Virus record (IMG/VR): IMGVR_UViG_2913147268_000003
From: a virus
Taxonomy: Duplodnaviria; Heunggongvirae; Uroviricota; Caudoviricetes
Length of the DNA: 21,948 nucleotides
Strand: one strand, 5' to 3'
The notes under the pieces were generated by a model. That model was given only the letters and a program-made list of their open reading frames with translations, did no database searches and was not told where the DNA came from. The translations under genes were made by a program, and so were the position numbers. This document shows, in pieces, positions 11,016-21,948 of the stretch (position 1 is the first letter of the stretch; each line of letters starts with the position of its first letter).

Positions 11016-11998
11016 GCCGTTACGCCCCCACACCGGAAGTTATGGCTATTGGTCAAATTAATATTTCCGGCAATGTTACACCTGCGAACTGGTGGAAATA
11101 TATTCGACTACCCAGTGGGCGTCCGGATGCGACGGCTATCGCTCTGCTTTCAGAGATCGTTTACTGGTACCGCCCGACAGAGGTCAGGGATGAGCACACC
11201 GGAGCGTTGCTGGGATATCGCAAGCGTTTTCAGGGCGACAAACTGCAAAGAAGCTACCAGGCGTTTGCTGAGCAGTTTGGTTTCGGGAAAAGGGAAACCG
11301 CAGATGCGCTGAAGCGTCTGCGCGATGCAGGGTTTATTACTCTGGATTTACGCACGGTGGAAATGCTCGATGGGGTGAAATGCAGCAATATTTTGTTTGT
11401 CGGGATCAACCCACAGGCAATTGCGGCCATCACCACACCTTCTTCTGTTTCGCCAGAAAGTAACAGCAATAATGCAATCAGCGATACAGCTATTACGTTA
11501 AAACGGAACACCCCCCGACGTCATAACGGAACAGGGGATACGCCGAATGTTGATACAAATACAGAGATTACTACAGAGATTACAACGGAGACTAAAAACA
11601 CTATTGATGCATCCGCTGACGCGTCTGCGCGTTCTGCCCGACAGGAATATTCACCGGAATTTGAACAGGCCTGGCAGGAATATCCCAAACGTGCTGGTGG
11701 CAATTCCAAGTCAGCAGCCTTCAAAGCCTGGAAAGCCCGTATCAGGGAGGGAATAAAACCGGAGACCATGCTTGATGGCGTGAAGCGGTATGCCGCCTGG
11801 GTACGTGCTACAGGAAATACCGGCACACAGTTCGTGAAGCAGGCTGCGACGTTCTTTGGACCCGATCGTCACTTCGAAGATTACTGGCAACAGCCAGCCG
11901 CTCACGGAGGTGGGCGACAGCGACAGGTCGATGTCCTGGCTGGCCTGGGAGCCATGTCTGACAAATTCGGTAAATCCAGTAACAAATTGACATTCTGA
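11012..11998 (+). CDS. Phage replication initiation protein (O-like / replisome organiser)
   Basis: 328 aa with AAGGAGG upstream. It has an N-terminal DNA-binding-like domain, a low-complexity linker whose DNA carries tandem iterons, and a C-terminal domain, and it sits directly upstream of the loader and helicase genes. Confidence 0.65.
   Translation: MSRYAPTPEVMAIGQINISGNVTPANWWKYIRLPSGRPDATAIALLSEIVYWYRPTEVRDEHTGALLGYRKRFQGDKLQRSYQAFAEQFGFGKRETADALKRLRDAGFITLDLRTVEMLDGVKCSNILFVGINPQAIAAITTPSSVSPESNSNNAISDTAITLKRNTPRRHNGTGDTPNVDTNTEITTEITTETKNTIDASADASARSARQEYSPEFEQAWQEYPKRAGGNSKSAAFKAWKARIREGIKPETMLDGVKRYAAWVRATGNTGTQFVKQAATFFGPDRHFEDYWQQPAAHGGGRQRQVDVLAGLGAMSDKFGKSSNKLTF
11561..11596. 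repeat. Tandem 12 bp iteron-like repeats inside the replication initiator gene
   Basis: ACAGAGATTACT / ACAGAGATTACA / ACGGAGACTAAA in direct tandem, encoding TEITTEITTETK in the linker. Confidence 0.5.
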
Positions 11999-12008
11999 GG
12001 TGACAGCG

Positions 12009-12908
12009 ATGATGACGATTGACCAACGTGAGAAACAAACAAGACTACAGGCGCGAATGGATGAGTTACGGGCAGAAATGGATGAGTTACGGGCAGAGAT
12101 TGCATTTGCTCAGAAGGGCGAAAAGCCATGGCCTTATCGTTCCTGCCTGATGCGTGAAGGTCGCGGATATTGCGAAAAACACGGTAAATATCGTACGCAT
12201 ATACTGGTGTGGATCGATCGTAATGGCGAGGACAGAGAAAAAATTTCATGCTGCCCTGACTGCTTGATCGCTGAGGCCAGTGATTTGACCATGGAACTGT
12301 CGTCCCTCAAGGCGGAAGAACTGACTGATAACGCCGGAATTGCTCTGCGTTTTCGGGACTGCGAGTTTGATAATTATCTGGAGGTTAATCCTGACGCAGC
12401 CAGAAATCTTGCGGCCTGTCGCCGCTATGCGGAGAACTGGCCAGATATGCTGGAGAACGGTACCAGTCTTGTTATGACCGGCAGTTGCGGTACCGGGAAA
12501 AATCATCTGGCGGTATCAATGGCAAAACACATCATCCGTAACTATCTGGCCAGTGTGGAGATCACCGACGTGATGCGCCTTACCCGGGCTGTGAAAAACT
12601 GCTGGCGGAATGACAGTGAAAAAACAGCGGATGACGTCATTGAGCATTATGCGTCACTGGATTTGCTGATTGTCGACGAAGTCGGCGTTCAGTTTGGCAG
12701 TGCGGCTGAAATGGCCATTTTGCAGGAAATTATCAATGCCCGGTATGAGGGTATTTTGCCAACTATCCTGATCAGCAACCTTTCACCGGAAGAATTGTGG
12801 GCGTTCATCAGTCCCCGGATTGCCGACAGGATCACCGATGGCGGGCGCAACTGGTTGTCGTTTAACTGGCCCAGCTACCGTTCTCGTATCGGAGGTGTTG
12901 CCGCATGA
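12009..12908 (+). CDS. DnaC-like helicase loader (IstB-type AAA+ ATPase)
   Basis: ATG at 12009 with GAGGTGA upstream. Walker A (GSCGTGKNHLA) and Walker B (LLIVDEVG) motifs. The N-terminal extension has a Cys cluster (C-x9-C ... CCPDC) and a tandem repeat. Confidence 0.8.
   Translation: MMTIDQREKQTRLQARMDELRAEMDELRAEIAFAQKGEKPWPYRSCLMREGRGYCEKHGKYRTHILVWIDRNGEDREKISCCPDCLIAEASDLTMELSSLKAEELTDNAGIALRFRDCEFDNYLEVNPDAARNLAACRRYAENWPDMLENGTSLVMTGSCGTGKNHLAVSMAKHIIRNYLASVEITDVMRLTRAVKNCWRNDSEKTADDVIEHYASLDLLIVDEVGVQFGSAAEMAILQEIINARYEGILPTILISNLSPEELWAFISPRIADRITDGGRNWLSFNWPSYRSRIGGVAA
12057..12098. repeat. 21 bp tandem duplication within the DnaC-like gene
   Basis: ATGGATGAGTTACGGGCAGAA followed by ATGGATGAGTTACGGGCAGAG, encoding MDELRAE twice in frame. 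Confidence 0.85.
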
Positions 12909-14305
12909 CCAGCCAGAACACCCCGGCATGGCGTAACGATGACCTGGAAGGCGCTGTCATCGGTGCGTTTTTTCTGCGTGGGGCCGATCCGGAAGTGATG
13001 GATATTCTGGCCACACTTCCGGCGGATGTATTTTTTGTGCGTCAGTACCGGGATATTTACGCGGGGATTTGCAGACAGGCTCGCATATCCGGCGTCATTG
13101 ACCCCGTACTGCTGTGCAATGAGATGCCGGAACTTGCCCCGGTGATTACCGACACCGGACGCAAAACCTGGGTGAAGTCTTCACTGGAGCACTATGTCGC
13201 AGCGTTGCGGCGCAATGCCGCACTGCGTGATGCAGAAAAAACACTGACTGAAGCATTACAGAATTTACGTGATGCGTATACCTGTGAAGCAGCCGAGGAT
13301 GCCCTGAAGGATGCGCAGAACATGATGGCCTCACTGTCGACCGGAAAGGGCGTCATTCAGCCGGTTCACATTGATGATGTCCTTCCGGAAGTGGTCGACC
13401 GTGTTGAATGCCGCAATCAGGGACTGGAGAAATCCAGGGCGCTGATGACCGGTATTGATGAACTGGACGCAAAAACGGGCGGTATGGAGCCCGGAGACCT
13501 GGTATTCATTGCCGCCCGTCCTTCGATGGGGAAAACCGAACTTGCGCTGGACATCATCGACAAGGTGACTGAGCAGGGGCATGGCGTGCTTCTGTTCACC
13601 ATGGAGATGGCGAACATCCAGATTGGTGAACGTATGGTGTCTGCTGCCGGTGGAATGCCGGTATCCCGTCTTAAGTCTGTTGCCCGTTTTGAAGATGAAG
13701 ACTGGGCGCGTTTCTCGCAGGGCGTGGGACGAATGACGGGGCGTAATATCTGGATGGTGGACCAGGCAAACCTGACCATTGATGAGATATGTGCAACCAC
13801 GAAGCACCACCGGATGAAGCATCCGGAAACGGCGCTGGTTGTGGTCGATTACCTCGGCCTGATTAAAACCCGCAGCACGGGGCGTCACGACCTTGCTGTG
13901 GGGGAAATCTCAAAGGGACTTAAAAGCCTGGCAAAATCCGGCGGTTTTCCGCTGATTGCTCTGAGCCAGCTCTCCCGTGGCGTGGAATCCAGACCCAATA
14001 AACGCCCAATGAACTCGGACCTGAAAAACTCCGGGGAAATCGAGGCGGATGCCGACATCATTCTGATGCTTTACAGGGAGGAGGTATACAACCCGGAAAC
14101 TCAGGCCAGAGGCATAGCAGAAATCAACATCACGAAACAGCGTAATGGCACGCTCGGGACCATTTACCGGCGTTTTCATAACGGACATTTTCTGCCTGTG
14201 GACCAGGAGAGTGCCCGGGTTCTTTCCACACCAATGCAACAGCCCCAGCCGCGCAGATACAGCAACAAACGAACTGACAGCAGTAAGATGGAGCGTTTCT
14301 TTTGA
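12905..14305 (+). CDS. Replicative DNA helicase, DnaB-like
   Basis: 466 aa with GGAGGTG upstream. Walker A (ARPSMGKTELAL) and other DnaB-like motifs (VVDYLGLI, SQLSRGVESR, ITKQRNG). Confidence 0.85.
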   Translation: MTSQNTPAWRNDDLEGAVIGAFFLRGADPEVMDILATLPADVFFVRQYRDIYAGICRQARISGVIDPVLLCNEMPELAPVITDTGRKTWVKSSLEHYVAALRRNAALRDAEKTLTEALQNLRDAYTCEAAEDALKDAQNMMASLSTGKGVIQPVHIDDVLPEVVDRVECRNQGLEKSRALMTGIDELDAKTGGMEPGDLVFIAARPSMGKTELALDIIDKVTEQGHGVLLFTMEMANIQIGERMVSAAGGMPVSRLKSVARFEDEDWARFSQGVGRMTGRNIWMVDQANLTIDEICATTKHHRMKHPETALVVVDYLGLIKTRSTGRHDLAVGEISKGLKSLAKSGGFPLIALSQLSRGVESRPNKRPMNSDLKNSGEIEADADIILMLYREEVYNPETQARGIAEINITKQRNGTLGTIYRRFHNGHFLPVDQESARVLSTPMQQPQPRRYSNKRTDSSKMERFF

Positions 14306-14316
14306 ACAACCAGACA

Positions 14317-14559
14317 ATGACTTTTACCCCTGAGCAATTACGTAAACAGGCACAGGAAATGTTGCGGCAGGCGGAACAACTGGAAAAAACAGGTGTAACA
14401 AAAGATGCCATTCGTCGGGATATGGTGCCAGCGCTCAGGGAACTGATGCAGGCAAAACACCGTGCACAAAAAGCAGTGGATGAGCTGGTGGATTGTGTGG
14501 CAGAGCTGGAAACCAGAGTTGGTAAGTTTGAAAAACTGGTGCAGGAGGTACTGCGCTGA
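14317..14559 (+). CDS. Hypothetical coiled-coil phage protein (about 80 aa)
   Basis: First ATG (MTFTPEQLRKQ...) after the helicase stop; the track's 14302 start is a TTG. Its stop overlaps the next ATG. Confidence 0.4.
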   Translation: MTFTPEQLRKQAQEMLRQAEQLEKTGVTKDAIRRDMVPALRELMQAKHRAQKAVDELVDCVAELETRVGKFEKLVQEVLR

Positions 14560-14927
14560 TGCGTGATATGTACGAAGTTTTAGATCGTTGGGGGGCCTGG
14601 GCTGCAGCAGATAACAGTGGTGTGGACTGGCAGCCGATAGCAGCAGGCTTCAAGGGGCTTTTACCACACGGTAAAAAGTCACGTCTCCAGTGTGATGATG
14701 ACGAAGGTATCATGATAGACGGTTGTGTGGCTCGGTTGCGAAAGTATAAACCCGAAGAGTATGAGTTGATCATTGCTCACTTTGTTATTGGTATCTCATT
14801 ACGCGCTATTGCTAAAAAACGGAAATGTTCAGATGGAACAATACGGAAAGAGATGCAAACAGCAATGGGGTTTATTGATGGCTGCTTGTCATTTTTCATT
14901 TACTACAATGACTTAAGTTCTATGTAA
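14559..14927 (+). CDS. Putative late-gene antitermination protein Q-like
   Basis: 122 aa with GGAGGT upstream. The pattern DRWGAWAA...IAAGFKGLLP...RLQCDDDEG...CVARLRKY...AHFVIGISLRAIAKKRKCSDGTIRK matches my recollection of the small prophage Q-like antiterminator family. The last 20 codons are AT-rich and atypical. Confidence 0.45.
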   Translation: MRDMYEVLDRWGAWAAADNSGVDWQPIAAGFKGLLPHGKKSRLQCDDDEGIMIDGCVARLRKYKPEEYELIIAHFVIGISLRAIAKKRKCSDGTIRKEMQTAMGFIDGCLSFFIYYNDLSSM

Positions 14928-14990
14928 AATCGTTCTACTTTCCCAACTTTTATGTGTATATAATACCAGGATAAAGTAACGGAGAATCTT

Positions 14991-16031
14991 GTGAACATTC
15001 AGGCAGTAGACATTTTTTGTGGTGCGGGGGGCTTAACTTTTGGGCTAAAAAAAGCCGGGATTGAGGTTTCTCATGGTATTGATATTGATGAATCCTGCCG
15101 TTTTGCTATTGAGAGCAATAATCCTTTAACGCAGTTCATTAATCAGTCAGTTACAGAACTGCAATCCTGCGATGTGTCTGCTATGTTCAAGGAAGGAAAT
15201 ATTAGATTGCTTGCTGGATGTGCTCCTTGCCAACCGTTTTCCAAGTATCGTAATCCAAATAGCCGTAAAGACGATACAAAGTGGCGTTTGTTATATGAGT
15301 TTCAAAGGCTTGTAAGTGATGTCATGCCAGAGCTTGTGACGATGGAGAATGTTCCTCAACTTAGAAACCATAAGGTTTTTGAAGGGTTTGTTAGTGCATT
15401 AAAGACTCTTGGATATCATTTGTGGTACGACGTTGTAAGATGTTCTGAGTATGGCTTACCTCAAAATAGACGTAGATTAATTCTAATTGGTTCCCAATTG
15501 GGGCCGATCAGCCTTGATCAAAAAAAAGTTAGCCGTAAAGTTACTGTTAAGGATGCTATTGGTAGGTTGCCAAAAGTAGGGGCAGGTGAGAAGCTGGAAA
15601 GCGATCCCTTGCATCGTTCGCCTAAATTGATGGATATCAATCTTAAACGAATCATGCATTCTTTACCTGGTGGTACGTGGGATGACTGGCCTGAAGAAAT
15701 TAGAGCAGACTGTCATAAAAAGAATTCAGGTGCTACCTATAAAAGCGTTTATGGACGGATGGTTTGGGACGATACTAGCCCTACGATAACTACCCAGTGT
15801 TATGGATATGGAAATGGACGATTTGGCCATCCTGAGCAAAATCGCGCCATAACTTTGCGTGAAGCTGCGATTTTGCAATCCTTTCCAATGGATTATAAAT
15901 TCCTTGACAAGGAGACGCCTTTTTCATTCCAAAAATTGGGGACAATGATTGGAAATGCTGTTCCCCCTATAATTGGTCAGATAATAGGGGAAACATTTAT
16001 CAGACATGTTGAGGGGATAAATACCCGTTAG
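14991..16031 (+). CDS. DNA (cytosine-5)-methyltransferase
   Basis: 346 aa, GTG start with GGAGAA upstream. Canonical C5-MTase motifs: motif I (DIFCGAGG), motif IV (GCAPCQPFS), motif VI (TMENVPQL), motif VIII (QNRRRLILIG) and motif X (GNAVPP). Confidence 0.9.
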   Translation: MNIQAVDIFCGAGGLTFGLKKAGIEVSHGIDIDESCRFAIESNNPLTQFINQSVTELQSCDVSAMFKEGNIRLLAGCAPCQPFSKYRNPNSRKDDTKWRLLYEFQRLVSDVMPELVTMENVPQLRNHKVFEGFVSALKTLGYHLWYDVVRCSEYGLPQNRRRLILIGSQLGPISLDQKKVSRKVTVKDAIGRLPKVGAGEKLESDPLHRSPKLMDINLKRIMHSLPGGTWDDWPEEIRADCHKKNSGATYKSVYGRMVWDDTSPTITTQCYGYGNGRFGHPEQNRAITLREAAILQSFPMDYKFLDKETPFSFQKLGTMIGNAVPPIIGQIIGETFIRHVEGINTR

Positions 16032-16689
16032 AGGTAATATAATTTTCTGTTGAGTTGATTAATAAACGCAAATATAGATCAATTCTTTCTGACCTCGATT
16101 TGACTTCTTCTAAAGGGTCTATTTGACCTTTTTTAGAAAAGCTGGTACTTCCATGTGCCAGCTCATTTCTGATATCTTTAAGTAAATCTAAGTCAACACC
16201 ATTTCTACACTCTGGTGAGTTTGCAACAGTTATTCCGTAAGCTTGTGTTATTTTGTGCAATACAGACTTGCAAACATTACCATTGAATTCTTTACGTATG
16301 TTTAATGAGGCTGAAATGATCCTTTTAGATATATCGGAACCAATTTTTTGATAAAGAGATTTTCCCGATTCATTATCTGAAATGATACGGTGCAAGATAT
16401 TTACTTGGAATTTCTCCCTGAGTGATGCGTAATTTACTTCATTATCTTGCAAATGGTCATAAATTGACTCAATGCATCCTCTGGCAGTGTTTTCAACCTG
16501 ATTGTACAGCATCATGTGCACGGATGATTTTAAAATGTTAACCCTAAGGGTATTTGATTCTATTTCATCTTTATGCGTTTGCTGATCTAACTGCTGAGTC
16601 TGAGCCTCTAAAGATGACGCAAGAGAAAGCAATTCCATAATATCTCTTGCTCTTTCTTCGTATTCATCTCTTAAATCAATCAAACTCAT
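16000..16689 (-). CDS. HEPN-domain protein (putative RNase effector)
   Basis: 229 aa with its ATG 2 nt after the stop of the DUF262 gene. C-terminal R-x4-H motif (IRNELAHG, residues 174-179) typical of HEPN, preceded by a coiled-coil-like N-terminus. Confidence 0.55.
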   Translation of the reverse strand: MSLIDLRDEYEERARDIMELLSLASSLEAQTQQLDQQTHKDEIESNTLRVNILKSSVHMMLYNQVENTARGCIESIYDHLQDNEVNYASLREKFQVNILHRIISDNESGKSLYQKIGSDISKRIISASLNIRKEFNGNVCKSVLHKITQAYGITVANSPECRNGVDLDLLKDIRNELAHGSTSFSKKGQIDPLEEVKSRSERIDLYLRLLINSTENYITSNGYLSPQHV

Positions 16690-16691
16690 AG

Positions 16692-17849
16692 TTACATTCC
16701 TAATAATTTATCTTTGACATAAAATATTCTGTTTTTGAGTTGGCTGGTGTTGTTGGCACTATCAGCAGTAACTATGGTTTCAAATTCCTCCCCAAACAGC
16801 CAGTCTCCTACAGGAATAACCGGAGCCTGTAGATGTGGATTGGCTTTTAAGGCAAGAGCAGTTCCCACTGCTATGGCTTCGTATCTAGCACGGGGGGTGG
16901 TTTTGCTTGTTGGTGTCTTTTTAAACCCCATAGGGAAATGAGCATCTACAAAAGCAAGCATGCTTTCAAAATCATGTTTAAATTTGTCTACATCTTGTTG
17001 TGTGACCCTTTCGGCCTGAACATTAAGATAATTGTCAATAAAAGGAGCGACATAACCCTTATAATTTTCTAAATCATTTAAGTATGCAAAAAATCTCAAA
17101 ACTAACTCACGATGATCGCCATTCGAACGTTTCCGGTCTGATAATGGAGCTAGACTAGCGAAAAGTGGATTTGTTGAGCAAGGAGTCACAACATCCCTAT
17201 AGAAAATTGAAGTGGCCGCATCTGAACCATGTCTAACCTCCATCGCTTCCAGTCTCTTAACACCTGAATTTATTCTTTCGAATAAATCTCTTCTATGTTG
17301 CTCCTCAACATCACCTTTCAATTCAATAAATCTTAGTGATGCCCTTAAAAATCGCCTCTGGCGGCTAGCCAAAAGATCTGAAAATTTGAAGCCCTCTAAA
17401 CTTTTGAGTTCTTTTAAGTCTTTCAATTCAAACTGATTGTTCCAAAAGTAGTAAATTGAGCGAATCCTTTGTGAACCGTCAATAATTTCTACACGACCAT
17501 CCAACTCAGGATCTTCATTAAATACGTCGGAGATGTAGAGGTACGGGATTGGAAAATCTAATAATATACTTTCGATGAATCGAGAGGCTGTTTTGATATC
17601 CCATTTGTAATCGCGTTGATAATCAGGAATAAAAAGTTCGTTTTTGTCAGTTTCAAGATTATTGCCATACTTTTGTACAATTAATTCAACGGTCCATTCA
17701 CGTACGTTGTATCCAATATTTCTCTGAGCAAGCCTAATCTCGTTGTCGGCAGAAGTGACCAAGGCTGCAATTTCAGCTTTTTTTCTATTTTTCGCGTTTT
17801 CATCTTGAATCTGAGCAAGCTCTTCTTTGAGTTCTTTGAGTGTGGTCAT
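16692..17849 (-). CDS. DUF262 (ParB-like nuclease superfamily) domain protein
   Basis: 385 aa with AAGGAA upstream. N-terminal DUF262 signature motifs (IPDYQRDYKWD and IIDGSQRIRSI); the C-terminal roughly 180 aa are unassigned. Confidence 0.7.
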   Translation of the reverse strand: MTTLKELKEELAQIQDENAKNRKKAEIAALVTSADNEIRLAQRNIGYNVREWTVELIVQKYGNNLETDKNELFIPDYQRDYKWDIKTASRFIESILLDFPIPYLYISDVFNEDPELDGRVEIIDGSQRIRSIYYFWNNQFELKDLKELKSLEGFKFSDLLASRQRRFLRASLRFIELKGDVEEQHRRDLFERINSGVKRLEAMEVRHGSDAATSIFYRDVVTPCSTNPLFASLAPLSDRKRSNGDHRELVLRFFAYLNDLENYKGYVAPFIDNYLNVQAERVTQQDVDKFKHDFESMLAFVDAHFPMGFKKTPTSKTTPRARYEAIAVGTALALKANPHLQAPVIPVGDWLFGEEFETIVTADSANNTSQLKNRIFYVKDKLLGM

Positions 17850-17955
17850 ATCACTGTTCCTTTAATTGGAGTTGGAAATAGATTGTAAGAAAACTATAAC
17901 GCGTACGCAAAAAATATTATATCGTGTTAAGAGTGGTTACTACGCCACACAGCTT

Positions 17956-17979
17956 AAACCCGCCGCCAGGCGGTTTTTT
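17956..17979 (+). terminator. Intrinsic terminator (plus-strand sense)
   Basis: AAA then CCGCC-gcca-GGCGG followed by TTTTTT. No plus-strand gene lies immediately upstream, so it appears orphaned. Confidence 0.5.
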
Positions 17980-18102
17980 GTGTCCGAAAAACGGCGCAGT
18001 ACGTTAAACGTGCTGGTGGTTGCGAATACCGGTCTTTCAGCTTGCTGGCTTTTCAGACAAGAGTTATTGGTATGTCACGTTAACCAGAAAAGGGAAAAAG
18101 AC

Positions 18103-18300
18103 ATGCTAAAACAGCAGGATATGACCGAAACTGCCAGAGTGGTGTTTAATGAATTAAGCGTCACCGAACCGGCGACCGTCGGGGAAATTGCGCAGAATAC
18201 TTACCTTTCACGCGAACGCTGCCAGCTAATACTGACCCAGCTTGTTATGGCGGGTCTGGCAGATTATCAGTTCGGTTGTTACAGACGCCTTCCGCAGTGA
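18103..18300 (+). CDS. Small putative winged-helix regulator (65 aa)
   Basis: ATG at 18103 (MLKQQDMTETARVVFNELSVTEPATVGEIAQNTYLSRERCQLILTQLVMAGLADYQ...) resembles small FaeA/PapI-like winged-helix proteins; the track's longer ORF from 17866 is unsupported. Confidence 0.4.
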   Translation: MLKQQDMTETARVVFNELSVTEPATVGEIAQNTYLSRERCQLILTQLVMAGLADYQFGCYRRLPQ

Positions 18301-18407
18301 AGGCTTTTTTATTTGTGGTAATGGGCGGCTGGTGGGTGTTAGCGGCACCTGCCAGCCATCTGCTCATGCGTTGGGGTCACAAGCAAACCTCAGGCCCATC
18401 TGCTTTG

Positions 18408-18624
18408 ATCCGCGGTCGCATCATCCAGGTGCCGTCAAACTATGACCCGGAAAAACGCACGTACAGTGGTATCTGGGACGGCAGTCTGAAACCGGCATAC
18501 AGCAACAACCCGGCCTGGTGCCTGTGGGACATGCTGACTCACCCGCGCTACGGCATGGGAAAACGTCTGGGGCGGCGGATGTGGACAAGTGGGCGCTGTA
18601 TGCCATCGGGCAGTACTGCGACCA
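18408..18624 (+). pseudogene. Tail-tip host-specificity (J-like) fragment, plus-strand copy
   Basis: Encodes [55 protein letters not shown], then frameshifts by loss of one G. It is an inverted copy (about 99%) of 20019..20236. Confidence 0.6.
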
Positions 18625-20236
18625 TGCCTGATATCCGCAATCCGCTTTTCCGAGAACCAGAACTCAAACTGTACCGTCGGGTCATAAACGGCAAGATGTG
18701 GCGTTGCGGTTATCTGAAAATAGCCCGGCGTCAGCTCAATCCGCGACGGTGCTGCCGGTGCGGTAATCCGGAAGGTGGTGGTGGCAGGTTCACCCTGCTG
18801 GCCATAGCTGTTTATCGCCCGCACCGTCAGGGTGTATTCCCCGAGCGGCAGGCCGCTGAAACGGTGCTCCGTGTCTGCGGTGATGGCGGTGGTCACCAGT
18901 CTGGCATCCGTTCCCTTACCACTGGTCAGGCGCAGACTGAAGCACACACCCTTCACCACCCGCGGCGTGTCCCATTTCGCCTGCGCCAGATACTGGCCGT
19001 CAGCTGCGCTCACCTCCACCGTCAGGTGCTGCACTGCCGGTGGGATGACGCTGTTCAGGGAACCTGACTGCGGCTCAAAGCGGGCACCGTTATCCACGAT
19101 GGCTTCTTTTTCCGGTACGTGCTGCACCGCCGTGATGGCAAAGGTGCCGTCCGTGTTTTCCCGGATGGAGACACAGCGGAACAGGCGACGGCGCAGTGAC
19201 GGCAGGGAGAGTCCCCACACCCCGTATGTCTCCACACCATCAGGCAGGGTACTGACCTGTATCCGGTCCGGCGCGGGGTGTGCGGTGATGTCCACACTCA
19301 CCGGCTTACCGCTGCCGTTAATCAGGTTCACCGCCGATGTACCTGTCTCCGGCAGGGTAACCTCACGGTCCAGCGTCAGGGTGCGGGTGGCAGCATCAAT
19401 GGACAGGACACGTCCGCCGGTCAGGGTCCCGGCATAGTCATTATCACAGATTTCAATAATGTCACCGGGTGTGTGCCGCAGCCCCTGAGACCCGAGCGTG
19501 AAATCCACCGTCTGCGTTTCCAGCAGTTCGGTCTTTATCACCCACAGTCCGGCACGGTGGGCCTGACCGCGGCTGGTACAGCCGAACGCGTCCATCTTCA
19601 GCAGGTTGCGTCCGTAGCGCAGTATGGCTTCCGGGTCTTCCACCAGTTCCGTGGAGGTCTGCCAGCCGTTCTGCGGGTCGGTGTAATTCACCTCCACCGC
19701 CGTGTGCCGGTCCTTCAGGGCACTGAAGCTGTAGCGGAATCCCACGCCGTTATCATCCACCACCACATCGCTGTTGGTGTACGGCCACACCACATCCGAC
19801 GGGCGGTCCTGAACGAACGTCAGCGTCTGACCGTTCCATACCGGCATACAGCGCATCGCAGAGCAGAAATCACTGAGAACGTCCCACGCCTTACGCTGTT
19901 GTGCCAGGTACGCATTAAAGGTCATCCGCGGCTCGGTCCCCCCGAAACCATCCGGGACCGTCTGGTCGCAGTACTGCCCGATGGCATACAGCGCCCACTT
20001 GTCCACATCCGCCGCCCCTGGTCGCAGTACTGCCCGATGGCATACAGCGCCCACTTGTCCACATCCGCCGCCCCCAGACGTTTTCCCATGCCGTAGCGCG
20101 GGTGAGTCAGCATGTCCCACAGACACCAGGCCGGGTTGTTGCTGTATGCCGGTTTCAGACTGCCGTCCCAGATACCACTATACGTGCGTTTTTCCGGGTC
20201 ATAGTTTGACGGCACCTGGATGATGCGACCGCGGAT
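18625..20236 (-). pseudogene. Tail-tip host-specificity protein (lambda J-like) internal fragment, frameshifted
   Basis: Minus-strand translation gives a long J-like stretch ([74 protein letters not shown] ... [44 protein letters not shown]) matching the central part of lambda J as recalled. It lacks both ends and is broken by a 56 bp tandem duplication. Confidence 0.8.
19962..20073. repeat. Perfect 2 x 56 bp tandem duplication inside the J-like remnant
   Basis: CTGGTCGCAGTACTGCCCGATGGCATACAGCGCCCACTTGTCCACATCCGCCGCCC occurs twice in direct tandem (19962-20017 and 20018-20073). 56 is not a multiple of 3, so it frameshifts the J reading frame. Confidence 0.85.
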
Positions 20237-20527
20237 GACGAAAACTCCGGTGAATTTTTTGTTCAGGTCTGGGGAAATGGAGCCAACTTCGAAAACACGA
20301 TTTTGCGCCGTTCATACGAACGGCAGGGGATCCCCTGCCCATGGCGTTACTACAACGATCGCGATGTACGCACAATCGTTGAGCTGGGGAAAGCCATAGA
20401 CTTCGATGCCAGAACGGCTATTCCATTCGAAGGTGAGCGCCATAATGCACTTGATGACGCCCGTTACCAGGCAAAATACGTTTCAGTTATCTGGCAAAAA
20501 CTGATCCCGAATCAGGCTGATTTTTAA
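20237..20527 (+). pseudogene. 5'-truncated DEDDh-type 3'-5' exonuclease fragment
   Basis: The C-terminal H-x4-D motif (GERHNALDDARYQAKY) and an upstream GNGANFENTIL segment fit Exo III and Exo II motifs of DnaQ-like exonucleases; the Exo I (DxE) region is absent. The frame runs directly into the J inverted repeat, and the only in-frame start is a TTG at 20303. Confidence 0.45.
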
Positions 20528-20591
20528 TGTTCAACCCCGGTCGTTGCCCACCAGCTATAGTGGCGGCGACCATGATTAGCGAACGACGCTC

Positions 20592-20840
20592 ATGGCAAGA
20601 CTTATTCTGCTCACTGAGTGGGCAAAAGAGGAATTCAGTGAACCGGTCCCAACTCCGAGTACGTTAAGTAAATACGCTAAAGCCGGAATGATATTTCCTC
20701 TCCCCAAAAAAGTTGGAAGACGCTGGCGAGTGGATCCGCAAGCTCGCTTTGTCGGAATGGTAAACAAGCCGGAGGTGATCGCCACAGATCACCCTGCTTT
20801 GAAGAGGATACTGGAAGATGGCGCGCCCGCGAAAATATAA
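20592..20840 (+). CDS. xis: Excisionase (lambda Xis-like)
   Basis: 82 aa immediately upstream of, and overlapping, the integrase gene. The pattern LLTEWAKEEF...AGMIFPLPKKVGRRWRV resembles lambda/HK022 Xis (LTLQEW...RIFPPPVKDGREY) as recalled. Confidence 0.6.
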   Translation: MARLILLTEWAKEEFSEPVPTPSTLSKYAKAGMIFPLPKKVGRRWRVDPQARFVGMVNKPEVIATDHPALKRILEDGAPAKI

Positions 20841-21948
20841 AACCAATGTTCCGGGATTATCTCCGTATTTTGACAAAAGAAATAACAAAGTTTACTGGCG
20901 TTACAGGCATCCCATAACAGGCAAAAATCACGGTCTCGGCAGTATTGACCAGAAACTGGCAGAAACTATTGCAGCAGAAGCGAACAGCCGTCTTGCCCGG
21001 CAGCAAATGGAACAAATGCTCAGTCTGCAGGAGAAAATTATTAGTGATACCGGCGGTTCATCAACCGTTACCATTTTTCTGAATAATTACAGAAAAATTC
21101 AACAGGAAAGATATGAAAACGGCGAGATCAAACTCAACACGCTGAAACAGAAAGCGGCCCCTCTCAGGGTATTTGATGAACGTTTTGGCACCAGACCGTT
21201 AGATGCCATAACCGTAAAAGATGTGGTATCAGTACTGGAAGAGTACAAGGCCAGAGGACATAACAGAATGGGACAAATTTTCAGGAAGGTACTGATCGAT
21301 GTTTTCCGGGAAGCTCAGCAAACGGGCGATGTCCCGCCAGGCTTTAACCCTGCAGAATCGGCAAAAAAACCGCAGGTGCGGATATCAAGACAGCGACTGA
21401 CTTTTGATGAGTGGATGATGATTTATAACGCAGCGGAAAAGGATGGTTACTTTTTACAGCGCGGTATGCTGCTGGCACTGATGACAGGCCAGCGCCTTTC
21501 AGATATTTGCAAAATGCAATTTTCGGATATCCGGGATGGTTATCTTCATGTCGAACAGCAAAAAACAGGAACCCGGATTGCCATCCCTCTGGCTCTGCGT
21601 TGCGATAAATTAAATCTCACCCTAGATGATGTGGTGTCATCCTGCCGCGATTGCGTTCTTAGTCCGTGGCTATTGCACCACCATCACGCGAAAGGGACAG
21701 CTAAGCGCGGCGGGATGGTTAAGCCAGCAACATTAACCGTTGCATTTAAAAAAGCCCGGGATTCTGTGGATTACAACTGGCGTGCTAATGGCACCCCACC
21801 CTCTTTCCATGAGCAGAGATCTTTATCAGAGCGATTGTTCAGAGAGCAGGGGGTTGATACCAAAATTTTGCTGGGCCATTCGAATCAAAAAATGACCGAT
21901 ATTTACAACGACGCACGCGGTAAGGAATGGAAAAAACTGGTCATTTGA
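20818..21948 (+). CDS. int: Tyrosine integrase, lambda Int family
   Basis: 376 aa. Similar to lambda Int as recalled: LTFDEWMMIYNAAE, LLALMTGQRLSDICKMQFSDIRDGYLHVEQQKTGTRIAIP, FHEQRSLSERLF, LLGHSNQKMTDIYNDARGKEWKKL with the catalytic Tyr in the DIY region. Stop at 21946-21948. Confidence 0.9.
   Translation: MARPRKYKTNVPGLSPYFDKRNNKVYWRYRHPITGKNHGLGSIDQKLAETIAAEANSRLARQQMEQMLSLQEKIISDTGGSSTVTIFLNNYRKIQQERYENGEIKLNTLKQKAAPLRVFDERFGTRPLDAITVKDVVSVLEEYKARGHNRMGQIFRKVLIDVFREAQQTGDVPPGFNPAESAKKPQVRISRQRLTFDEWMMIYNAAEKDGYFLQRGMLLALMTGQRLSDICKMQFSDIRDGYLHVEQQKTGTRIAIPLALRCDKLNLTLDDVVSSCRDCVLSPWLLHHHHAKGTAKRGGMVKPATLTVAFKKARDSVDYNWRANGTPPSFHEQRSLSERLFREQGVDTKILLGHSNQKMTDIYNDARGKEWKKLVI

Follow-up and report, generated by a model that had tools for sequence, protein, structure and literature searches.

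The window analysed here, which is the entire 21,948-nucleotide Caudoviricetes record IMGVR_UViG_2913147268_000003 of IMG/VR, contains an island at 14928-17990 that carries three genes: a gene for a cytosine-5 DNA methyltransferase (C5-MTase, or MTase) and, convergent with it, a pair of genes for a DUF262/ParB-fold NTPase and a HEPN protein. The active sites encoded by these genes are intact, the three genes are mobile and are inherited together, and the DUF262-HEPN pair is located where a related Type II restriction-modification (R-M) system has its restriction endonuclease (REase). The proposal that these genes form a mobile anti-phage cassette, in which the logic of an R-M system is combined with an RNA-targeting effector, is about evenly balanced in probability. 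A preliminary description of this DNA had proposed that the three genes constitute one modification-linked defence-type module, and the co-inheritance of the MTase with the pair supports this proposal.

Three proteins of the cassette

The three open reading frames (ORFs) are located exactly where the preliminary description had placed them. The genes and the overlap between them are as follows.

14991..16031, plus strand: C5-MTase, 346 aa, GTG start
16692..17849, minus strand: DUF262/ParB-fold NTPase with a helical C-terminal (ParBDB-like) domain, 385 aa, predicted DNA sensor
16000..16689, minus strand: MAE_28990-family HEPN protein, 229 aa, predicted RNase effector
16000..16031: overlap of the 3' ends of the convergent MTase and HEPN genes, 32 nt

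The assignment of these proteins to the C5-MTase, DUF262, and HEPN families in the preliminary description agrees with the Pfam matches, because PF00145, PF03235, and PF18737/PF18735 are all matched. In RefSeq, the corresponding product names are 'DNA cytosine methyltransferase', 'DUF262 domain-containing protein', and 'MAE_28990/MAE_18760 family HEPN-like nuclease'. The MTase matches PF00145 at E=9.5e-54 and the PADLOC model MTase_II at 1.6e-87. It contains motifs I (FCGAGG, residue 9), IV (PCQPFS, 79), VI (ENV, 119), VIII (QNRRR, 158), and X (GNAVP, 321). Thus, a DNA methyltransferase with intact catalytic motifs, as expected for a Type II R-M system, is present in the window. The target specificity of this enzyme cannot be inferred from a PDB search, because the matches are confined to the catalytic cores of DNMT1 and M.HaeIII.

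The DUF262 protein matches PF03235 (GmrSD_N) at 1.1e-25 and a PHROGs family of unknown function (phrog_2598) at 5e-134. In PADLOC, it matches NsnA at 5.6e-46 and PD-T4-2_A (PDLC04027) at 4.3e-27 over profile positions 52-313 of 363. The QRxxxW, DGSQR (residues 124-128), and FxxxN motifs, which are the three motifs named for the family (PMC12065111), are invariant in all 73 DUF262 homologues examined. In the AlphaFold2 (AF2) model, with a predicted local distance difference test score (pLDDT) of 83.6, the N-terminal domain is of the ParB-like alpha/beta type, and the C-terminal half is entirely helical. When this model is compared with known structures by Foldseek, BrxU ranks first (7p9k, probability 0.98), followed by ParB/Noc CTPases and SspE. 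The model therefore resembles BrxU, SspE, and ParB, which read DNA and its modification by an NTP-dependent switch (PMC10952713, PMC12065111), and its C-terminal half resembles the DNA-binding middle domains of BrxU and SspE. Neither Pfam, which gives GmrSD_N only, nor the model reveals a nuclease domain or a His-Me or PD-(D/E)XK motif in the DUF262 protein. PF07510 (DUF1524) has no Pfam match in any of the three proteins. A PDB sequence search with the DUF262 profile gives one marginal match only, to an unnamed DUF262 protein.

The HEPN protein matches PF18737 (HEPN_MAE_28990) at 3.8e-16, PF18735 (RiboL-PSP) at 6.7e-8, and a PHROGs family of unknown function (phrog_3846) at 3e-85. It belongs to a large family, with 1,289 cluster representatives (50% identity) at E<=1e-3. 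The R174-N-[DE]-L-A-H179-G sequence is invariant in the homologues from the loci described below (62/62) and in diverse database representatives (121/121). The motifs around R174/H179 of HEPN and DGSQR of DUF262, which the preliminary description had pointed out, are therefore genuine family motifs. The AF2 model of the HEPN protein is all-helical (pLDDT 71.5), so that both the all-alpha fold and the Rx4-6H motif of the HEPN superfamily are found, and RNase activity is predicted.

Co-inheritance of the three genes

A search at E<=1e-5 gives 2,860 homologues of the DUF262 protein, and a scan of one genome per species gives 79 further loci. All loci were analysed for ORFs and with profile hidden Markov models (HMMs). 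The neighbourhoods of DUF262 homologues with 85%, 72%, 62%, and 58% identity show the same arrangement, in which DUF262 is followed by HEPN and a convergent PF00145 MTase abuts HEPN. The surroundings are completely different: in Vibrio and Pseudomonas, the genes are located on islands (an integrase/AlpA/VapE island and an island beside McrBC, respectively), and in Yersinia and Klebsiella in prophages, with two different backbones in Klebsiella. HEPN is located directly downstream of DUF262 in virtually every locus that has an intact gene and enough sequence. In the window, the stop codon of DUF262 lies 2 nt before the ATG of HEPN, from which translational coupling had been proposed, and the modal gaps of −4 and −1 nt across ~70 loci are in line with this proposal.

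The orthologous convergent C5-MTase is present in 26 non-redundant loci, which represent all proteobacterial clades and one cyanobacterial clade. About 30 loci, from one large cyanobacterial clade and Flavobacterium, have no C5-MTase within 5 kb. The presence of the MTase follows the DUF262 tree with one major loss, in a cyanobacterial clade. Both the pair and the trio are found again much more frequently than would be expected by chance. From E. coli to Cyanobacteria, the three genes travel together through the post-Q slots of lambdoid prophages, P2 hotspots, integrase islands, and chromosomal islands; the MTase is therefore no orphan. A phage tblastn search adds related trios from Moraxella phage Mcat29 and from the P2-like phage P24B2 (40% identity). 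The same search finds an MTase-less RiboL-PSP-type pair in a Klebsiella P2-like phage (ST16-OXA48phi5.4); none of these finds is PD-T4-2.

The MTases of the 26 cassettes represent one orthologous lineage with 50-80% identity. Between E. coli and Cyanobacteria, identity is 50-55% for the MTase, 43-48% for DUF262, and 25-31% for HEPN. Within the MTase, conservation is higher in the target-recognition domain (TRD, residues 171-300) than in the catalytic core (0.73 vs 0.62), implying that a single target has been conserved. As far as can be judged from these sequences, all cassettes very probably write the same mark. Non-orthologous C5-MTases with 30-33% identity substitute for the MTase at four loci of the set. 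The substitute is convergent at one of them (L011), and is located upstream of the pair, on the same strand and in the same operon, at the other three (L025, L032, and L088). This replacement argues that 5-methylcytosine (5mC) is needed, rather than a particular protein partner.

To the loci without the MTase belong cyanobacterial loci in which, among those sampled, the neighbours are housekeeping genes (acnB, clpB, brkB, and permeases). DNA MTases of other types are absent from these sampled loci; one of them (L085) has a generic methyltransferase of the small-molecule type. In Nostocales and relatives, the MTase-less pair is located directly downstream of the aconitase B gene at both loci checked (L055 and L080), and upstream ORFs of the same size (876-976 aa) suggest the same arrangement at L056, L063, L071, and L077. 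By its sequence context, the aconitase-B-linked pair looks stable and vertically inherited, unlike the mobile proteobacterial cassettes. Its catalytic motifs are still intact.

The DUF262 proteins with and without a linked MTase differ at two positions of the C-terminal domain. R322 and N366 are present in all 29 MTase-linked proteins, whereas position 322 is K in 38 and position 366 is S in 35 of the 44 MTase-less proteins. This split could be a phylogenetic signal only, or these residues could be candidate determinants of the reading of the mark.

Short ORFs that resemble the DUF262 core are also found in large T4-like lytic coliphages (JSE/RB49-type, ~164 kb) and in many Klebsiella jumbo-type phages (~175 kb) (records H45-H57). 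They show ~30-39% identity to residues 75-191 or 75-139 of DUF262, as in Escherichia phage JSE (NC_012740.1, 119717-120034), and are possibly phage-borne DUF262 domains.

A Type II R-M counterpart with the same methyltransferase

The association was also examined from the side of the MTase, with a sample of five homologues of 54-58% identity. Four of them are convergent with DUF262-HEPN, in Halomonas, a Proteus P2-like prophage, Pseudomonas P105, and a Gibbsiella P2-like prophage. The fifth, from P2-like prophages of Pasteurella multocida (L097:4001-7016 and L098), is convergent with a gene for a 658-aa protein, and the 3' ends of the two genes overlap. This partner contains a GHKL-type ATPase domain (HATPase_c_3), matches the PADLOC model REase_II at 3.4e-92, and has a faintly Shedu-nuclease-like C-terminus. 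The Pasteurella MTase is 55% identical to the window MTase overall and 63% identical in the TRD, so that the TRD is again better conserved than the core, and to a degree equal to the TRD identity among the cassette MTases. Since the same MTase lineage faces a Type II enzyme in Pasteurella, the DUF262-HEPN pair occupies the position of the restriction endonuclease.

The Pasteurella Type II R-M system thus shares with the cassette the MTase lineage, the convergent overlapping layout, and the same kind of prophage hotspot, and differs from it in that the partner of the MTase is a single GHKL-ATPase/nuclease protein. As an argument from sequence comparison, this is the strongest single one for an R-M-type logic of the cassette. 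No DNase is recognisable in the cassette, and thus no endonuclease of the kind that defines a Type II R-M system.

Relation to known defence systems

PD-T4-2 and PD-lambda-5 were compared with the cassette by means of PADLOC HMMs and published HHpred tables. PD-T4-2 of E. coli ECOR65 consists of two genes ('DUF262, HEPN'), protects against T4 both natively and in K-12, and has no methylase (Vassallo 2022, PMC9519451). In HHpred, its A protein is DUF262 (99.7%) and its B protein is HEPN_RiboL-PSP (97.8%) and HEPN_MAE_28990 (96.9%) (PMC9519451). PD-T4-2 is similar to the cassette in that a DUF262 gene without DUF1524 is followed by a small HEPN gene, in that HEPN is of the same two Pfam families, and in that it is located in mobile or accessory DNA of E. 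coli. The window DUF262 protein also matches the PD-T4-2_A profile, although more weakly than that of NsnA. PD-T4-2 is different from the cassette in that it works alone, without a methyltransferase, and in that its genes are smaller (~1.54 kb in total vs 1.85 kb in the cassette). Conversely, the cassette has a co-inherited C5-MTase, and its HEPN protein does not match the PD-T4-2_B profile of PADLOC at E<=1; two of the 121 HEPN family representatives match this profile, the better one at E=0.0031. By sequence, the cassette is a relative of PD-T4-2 that shares its architecture. PADLOC would not call this locus, because PD-T4-2_A is matched but PD-T4-2_B is not, and NsnB and NsnC are absent.

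PD-lambda-5 combines ParB/HEPN with a methyltransferase (Vassallo 2022, PMC9519451). Like the cassette, it has a ParB-fold domain, a HEPN-like region, and a DNA methyltransferase, and is prophage-borne; it protects broadly. Unlike the cassette, it has a ParBc domain (PF02195) fused to HEPN, and its methyltransferase is a Dam-like/D12-class N6 enzyme (PF02086). None of the window proteins matches PD-Lambda-5_A of PADLOC. The two systems are analogous, not orthologous, and identification of the cassette as PD-lambda-5 was rejected, because the ParB type, the MTase class, and the gene structure differ. The preliminary description had regarded the arrangement as not assignable to a named system. 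This view does not hold, because DUF262 with HEPN is the architecture of PD-T4-2, and ParB/HEPN with a methyltransferase is that of PD-lambda-5.

The best PADLOC match of the DUF262 protein is to Menshen (NsnABC; Millman 2022; Li et al. 2025), in which NsnA likewise has a ParB-DUF262 domain, a helical ParBDB domain, and the three motifs. In some cases, a solitary methylase is linked to a Menshen locus (Li et al. 2025, PMC12065111). Menshen, however, has the ABC-ATPase NsnB and the inPIN effector NsnC, whereas the cassette has HEPN and a convergent C5-MTase instead. No ORF for NsnB or another such ATPase is found within 14928-17990, and the third gene encodes the C5-MTase, not NsnC. With both NsnB and NsnC absent, identification of the cassette as Menshen was rejected.

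GmrSD, BrxU, and SspE share with the cassette a DUF262 NTPase sensor domain with a DGxQR motif. SspE works with the dedicated DNA-modification module SspABCD, which is a precedent for the reading of a self mark by DUF262 (PMC10952713). These systems carry a DUF1524 His-Me nuclease, whereas the cassette is without it, has a separate HEPN protein, and depends for 5mC on a single MTase. Identification of the cassette as GmrSD or BrxU was rejected for lack of DUF1524. The absence of a DUF1524 partner, which had been regarded as unusual in the preliminary description, is in fact normal for NsnA, PD-T4-2_A, and DzbA (PMC10952713).

An operon of MAE_28990 HEPN, ParB, and DNA methylase was already tabulated in 2013 (Anantharaman, Biol Direct 8:15, PMC3710099). 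This entry is a one-line computational observation, without a system name and without analysis of the MTase lineage, arrangement, or distribution. Experimental or mechanistic studies on the trio, on MAE_28990, or following up PD-T4-2 were not found in the searchable library; a 2024 preprint on 'embedded defences' proved not relevant to the cassette, and PD-T4-2 is described as 'largely uncharacterized' (Li et al. 2025, PMC12065111). Thus, the cassette was foreshadowed computationally in 2013.

Proposed mechanism and alternatives

According to the proposed mechanism, the C5-MTase would be produced from its own conserved promoter and would write one fixed 5mC motif on the host and prophage DNA. 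The DUF262 NTPase would read this mark and react to DNA without it, such as an incoming phage genome. Its NTP-dependent switch would then activate the translationally coupled HEPN RNase, which would cleave RNA and stop translation, leading to abortive infection or growth arrest. The convergent overlapping transcription would probably balance expression of the MTase against that of the pair, as in convergent Type II R-M systems. A defence phenotype is suggested by the homology in architecture to PD-T4-2, and methylation reading by the sensor, the direction of discrimination, and RNA as the target are likewise predictions.

Several results weigh against this mechanism. MTase-less pairs exist in PD-T4-2, a large cyanobacterial clade, Flavobacterium, and a Klebsiella P2-like phage, so that the pair is not inherently methylase-dependent and not inherently toxic alone. 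Characterised DUF262 enzymes (GmrSD and BrxU) attack modified, not unmodified, DNA (PMC10952713). A fold search with the HEPN model gives generic helical bundles only and is uninformative, and the confidence of this model is moderate.

A more specific form of the proposed mechanism is plausible, with a somewhat less than even chance of being correct. In this form, the cassette would be a true R-M system whose restriction arm does not cut DNA: the ParB-fold NTPase would read the 5mC motif and signal to HEPN, and this module and a Type II endonuclease, each facing the same methylase, would repeatedly have replaced one another. PD-T4-2 and the cyanobacterial clade, as relatives without the MTase, would be derived forms in which the mark was changed or lost, with R322 and N366 as candidate determinants. 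If this is true, self and non-self are distinguished on DNA, but the response is executed on RNA, and the restriction module of an R-M system is exchangeable for a pair of sensor and RNase opposite the same methylase. DUF262-HEPN systems of the PD-T4-2 type are validated, and the MTase-linked form offers an experimental handle on what their sensor reads and how it controls HEPN. The sensor of this form probably has a defined 5mC motif as its ligand, and such a motif can be supplied or omitted as desired, which permits a host-controlled-modification experiment for a system that is not a DNase. The recognition sequence that the two systems share might be found in the REBASE entry of the Pasteurella R-M counterpart. 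The cassette is not rare, and may affect the host range in phage therapy and the 5mC methylomes of prophages.

Alternative explanations differ in the roles given to DUF262 and the MTase. It is possible, but unlikely, that DUF262 acts as a restriction DNase or nickase together with the MTase, and that HEPN serves as a backup effector, which the R-M components keep inactive until they are neutralised by a phage. Such a PrrC-like role was proposed for R-M-linked HEPN RNases by Anantharaman (2013, PMC3710099), who called the partner a 'ParB nuclease'. The place of DUF262-HEPN in the comparison with Pasteurella agrees with this explanation, as does the weak match (~1e-6 to 1e-7) of the P24B2 and Mcat29 DUF262 homologues to a PADLOC REase_II model. 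However, the DUF262 protein has a helical C-terminal half and lacks a nuclease domain and a His-Me or PD-(D/E)XK motif, and in its characterised relatives DUF262 is the NTPase sensor and DUF1524 cuts (PMC10952713). In addition, replacement of the MTase by non-orthologous enzymes speaks against inhibition via specific protein contacts. It is rather unlikely that DUF262 instead recognises foreign modified DNA, such as the hydroxymethylcytosine (hmC) or glucosyl-hmC of T-even phages, and triggers HEPN in the manner of a Type IV system, with the MTase as an accessory that, for example, protects the DNA of the element in new hosts or tunes expression. PD-T4-2 was selected on T4 and works without an MTase (PMC9519451), GmrSD and BrxU target modified cytosines (PMC10952713), and MTase-less clades exist, all of which favour this explanation. 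It leaves unexplained, however, why a single MTase lineage, with its conserved TRD, has been co-inherited so deeply, and also the replacement of this MTase by other C5-MTases, the in-operon order MTase, DUF262, HEPN, the all-or-none pattern, and the REase-equivalent position.

That the cassette is primarily an addiction module, which stabilises the prophage or island because the long-lived pair kills when the cassette is lost and methylation is diluted, with phage defence secondary or absent, is improbable. The cassette is always located on mobile elements and is all-or-none in E. coli, and selfish Type II R-M systems typically have such a convergent layout with overlapping ends. Addiction does not exclude defence, however, since R-M systems do both; moreover, the cassette is located in known defence hotspots (the P2 gpA-portal site, the post-Q moron slot, and sites beside McrBC, HicAB, or R-M genes), and its closest validated relative is a defence system. 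Chance neighbourhood of an unrelated orphan prophage methylase and a two-gene DUF262-HEPN system is hardly credible. Prophages do often carry orphan methylases, and an N6-type 'DNA-methyltransferase' is located downstream on this same backbone in THO-003, AR437, and phiP27. But the synteny is conserved across phyla and contexts, the association holds for four of the five MTases sampled, and the phylogenies are concordant, so that this explanation is effectively refuted by the comparative data. An unrelated orphan MTase had also been the fallback of the preliminary description, and is rejected for three reasons: the MTase and the pair are inherited together in different phyla and contexts, non-orthologous C5-MTases take the place of this MTase in four lineages, and the cassette is all-or-none in the E. 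coli genomes that carry it (107/107).

Base composition and distribution of the cassette

The GC content of the island is 0.382, as compared with 0.516 for the left flank and 0.566 for the right flank. It ranges from 0.444 to 0.567 in every non-overlapping 3-kb segment outside the island, and among 1896 sliding segments only five, all of which overlap the island, have a GC content as low as that of the island or lower. The island is thus essentially the lowest-GC 3-kb stretch of the window. The statement in the preliminary description that the island is more AT-rich than its flanks, which had been made by eye, is thereby confirmed by computation, and its suggestion of horizontally acquired cargo is supported. 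An insertion signature is not seen, because no convincing direct or inverted repeats flank the island.

The cassette is present in 107 of 5,426 complete E. coli genomes (2%, including ST131) and is complete in all of them. It occurs as two alleles, with at least 99% identity in 73 genomes and ~87% identity in 34. In E. coli THO-003, the cassette is located between Q and the lysis genes of a complete lambdoid prophage at yecE. This slot is where Stx phages carry stx. In AR437, the 87% allele is carried by a degraded prophage near yfdPQR, where it follows another Q gene. Klebsiella and Yersinia, too, have the cassette immediately behind Q, and the Q alleles differ among these two and the two E. 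coli strains. It is also found in P2-hotspot prophages and in many marine and cyanobacterial genomes, and in the assembly collection, 761 index blocks list the DUF262 homologue of Klebsiella pneumoniae (P0029).

Putative regulatory elements and edges of the cassette

The left neighbour of the cassette and the elements proposed to regulate or bound it are as follows.

14559..14927, plus strand: antiterminator Q gene (PF06530 at 3.3e-47), left neighbour by which the post-Q cargo slot is defined, context and not part of the cassette
14955..14964, plus strand: promoter-like element TGTATATAAT upstream of the MTase gene, with a perfect −10 TATAAT at 14959-14964
14981-14985, plus strand: GGAGA, Shine-Dalgarno sequence of the MTase gene, downstream of TGTATATAAT
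17897..17923, minus strand: putative promoter region of DUF262-HEPN, with −10-like GATATAAT at 17916-17923 and then the invariant block TTTTGCGTACGCGTTA at 17897-17912
17960..17980, plus strand: GC-rich hairpin CCGCC-GCCA-GGCGG (17960-17973) with a T-run, terminator at the right edge

A consensus promoter scan gives fewer sites than in shuffled sequences, so that the promoters are proposed on the ground of cross-species conservation only. TGTATATAAT and GGAGA do not vary among the cassettes of E. coli (both alleles), Klebsiella, and Yersinia, including those for which the flank with the Q gene can no longer be aligned. The −10-like element and TTTTGCGTACGCGTTA of the putative DUF262-HEPN promoter are kept in the same four enterobacterial cassettes. 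TTTTGCGTACGCGTTA is GC-rich and contains the overlapping palindromes GCGTACGC and ACGCGT, whereas its surroundings are AT-rich and variable. These palindromes are not enriched in the window, and their conservation alone is notable. That this block serves as an operator or a methylation-sensitive site is speculative.

In 26 of the 27 convergent loci, the 3' ends of the MTase and HEPN genes either overlap or lie next to each other (−11 to +65 nt). There is therefore no room for an intergenic terminator, and the transcripts must collide or run antisense into the partner gene. By analogy, this layout resembles that of convergent Type II R-M systems. No Rfam family is found in 14300-18600, so that there is no evidence for an RNA antitoxin. 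The hairpin at the right edge is found in the same position in the AR437, Klebsiella, and Yersinia cassettes. An 'orphan terminator' had been noted here in the preliminary description; the hairpin with its T-run is indeed present, but that it is an orphan is not supported, as it travels with the cassette in Klebsiella and Yersinia. The sequence from ~17897 onward also matches Stx-phage backbones, so that the hairpin could belong either to the cassette or to the phage backbone.

Neighbouring genes and related prophages

In phiP27, the same post-Q slot contains a gene of the GIY-YIG nuclease family encoding 409 aa (L090:3035-4264; NC_003356.1, 14266-15495), upstream of the same TrmB-like ORF and of stx2e. 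This slot therefore looks like a variable defence or moron hotspot in lambdoid and Stx phages. In the window, the ORF downstream of the cassette (17866-18300, plus strand) shows weak similarity to winged helix-turn-helix (wHTH) proteins of the TrmB/MarR type (E ~0.015), and RefSeq annotates only its last 65 codons (18103-18300). Because it is kept beside the slot in phiP27 and Stx phages with or without the cassette, this ORF belongs to the phage backbone.

Prophages of Klebsiella in which the cassette is found have HicAB adjoining it and, beyond Q, DUF968, and DinI on the upstream side, either a reverse transcriptase (RVT_1) or an R-M system of the BsuBI/PstI type (L001:5007-5638 and 11742-13158; L002:11583-13070). 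Defence genes are thus abundant in these prophages.

The window departs from the arrangement of an intact prophage at ~18400, within the region 18300-21948. A fragment of a J-like tail-fibre gene with high GC content (0.6) is located at 18435-20126 on the minus strand. Beyond it lies a module for excisionase, exonuclease, and integrase, which from 20237 onward is 100% identical to other E. coli prophages. This junction is not found in one place in any complete E. coli genome of the collection, which suggests that the prophage was rearranged or recombined in the source strain.

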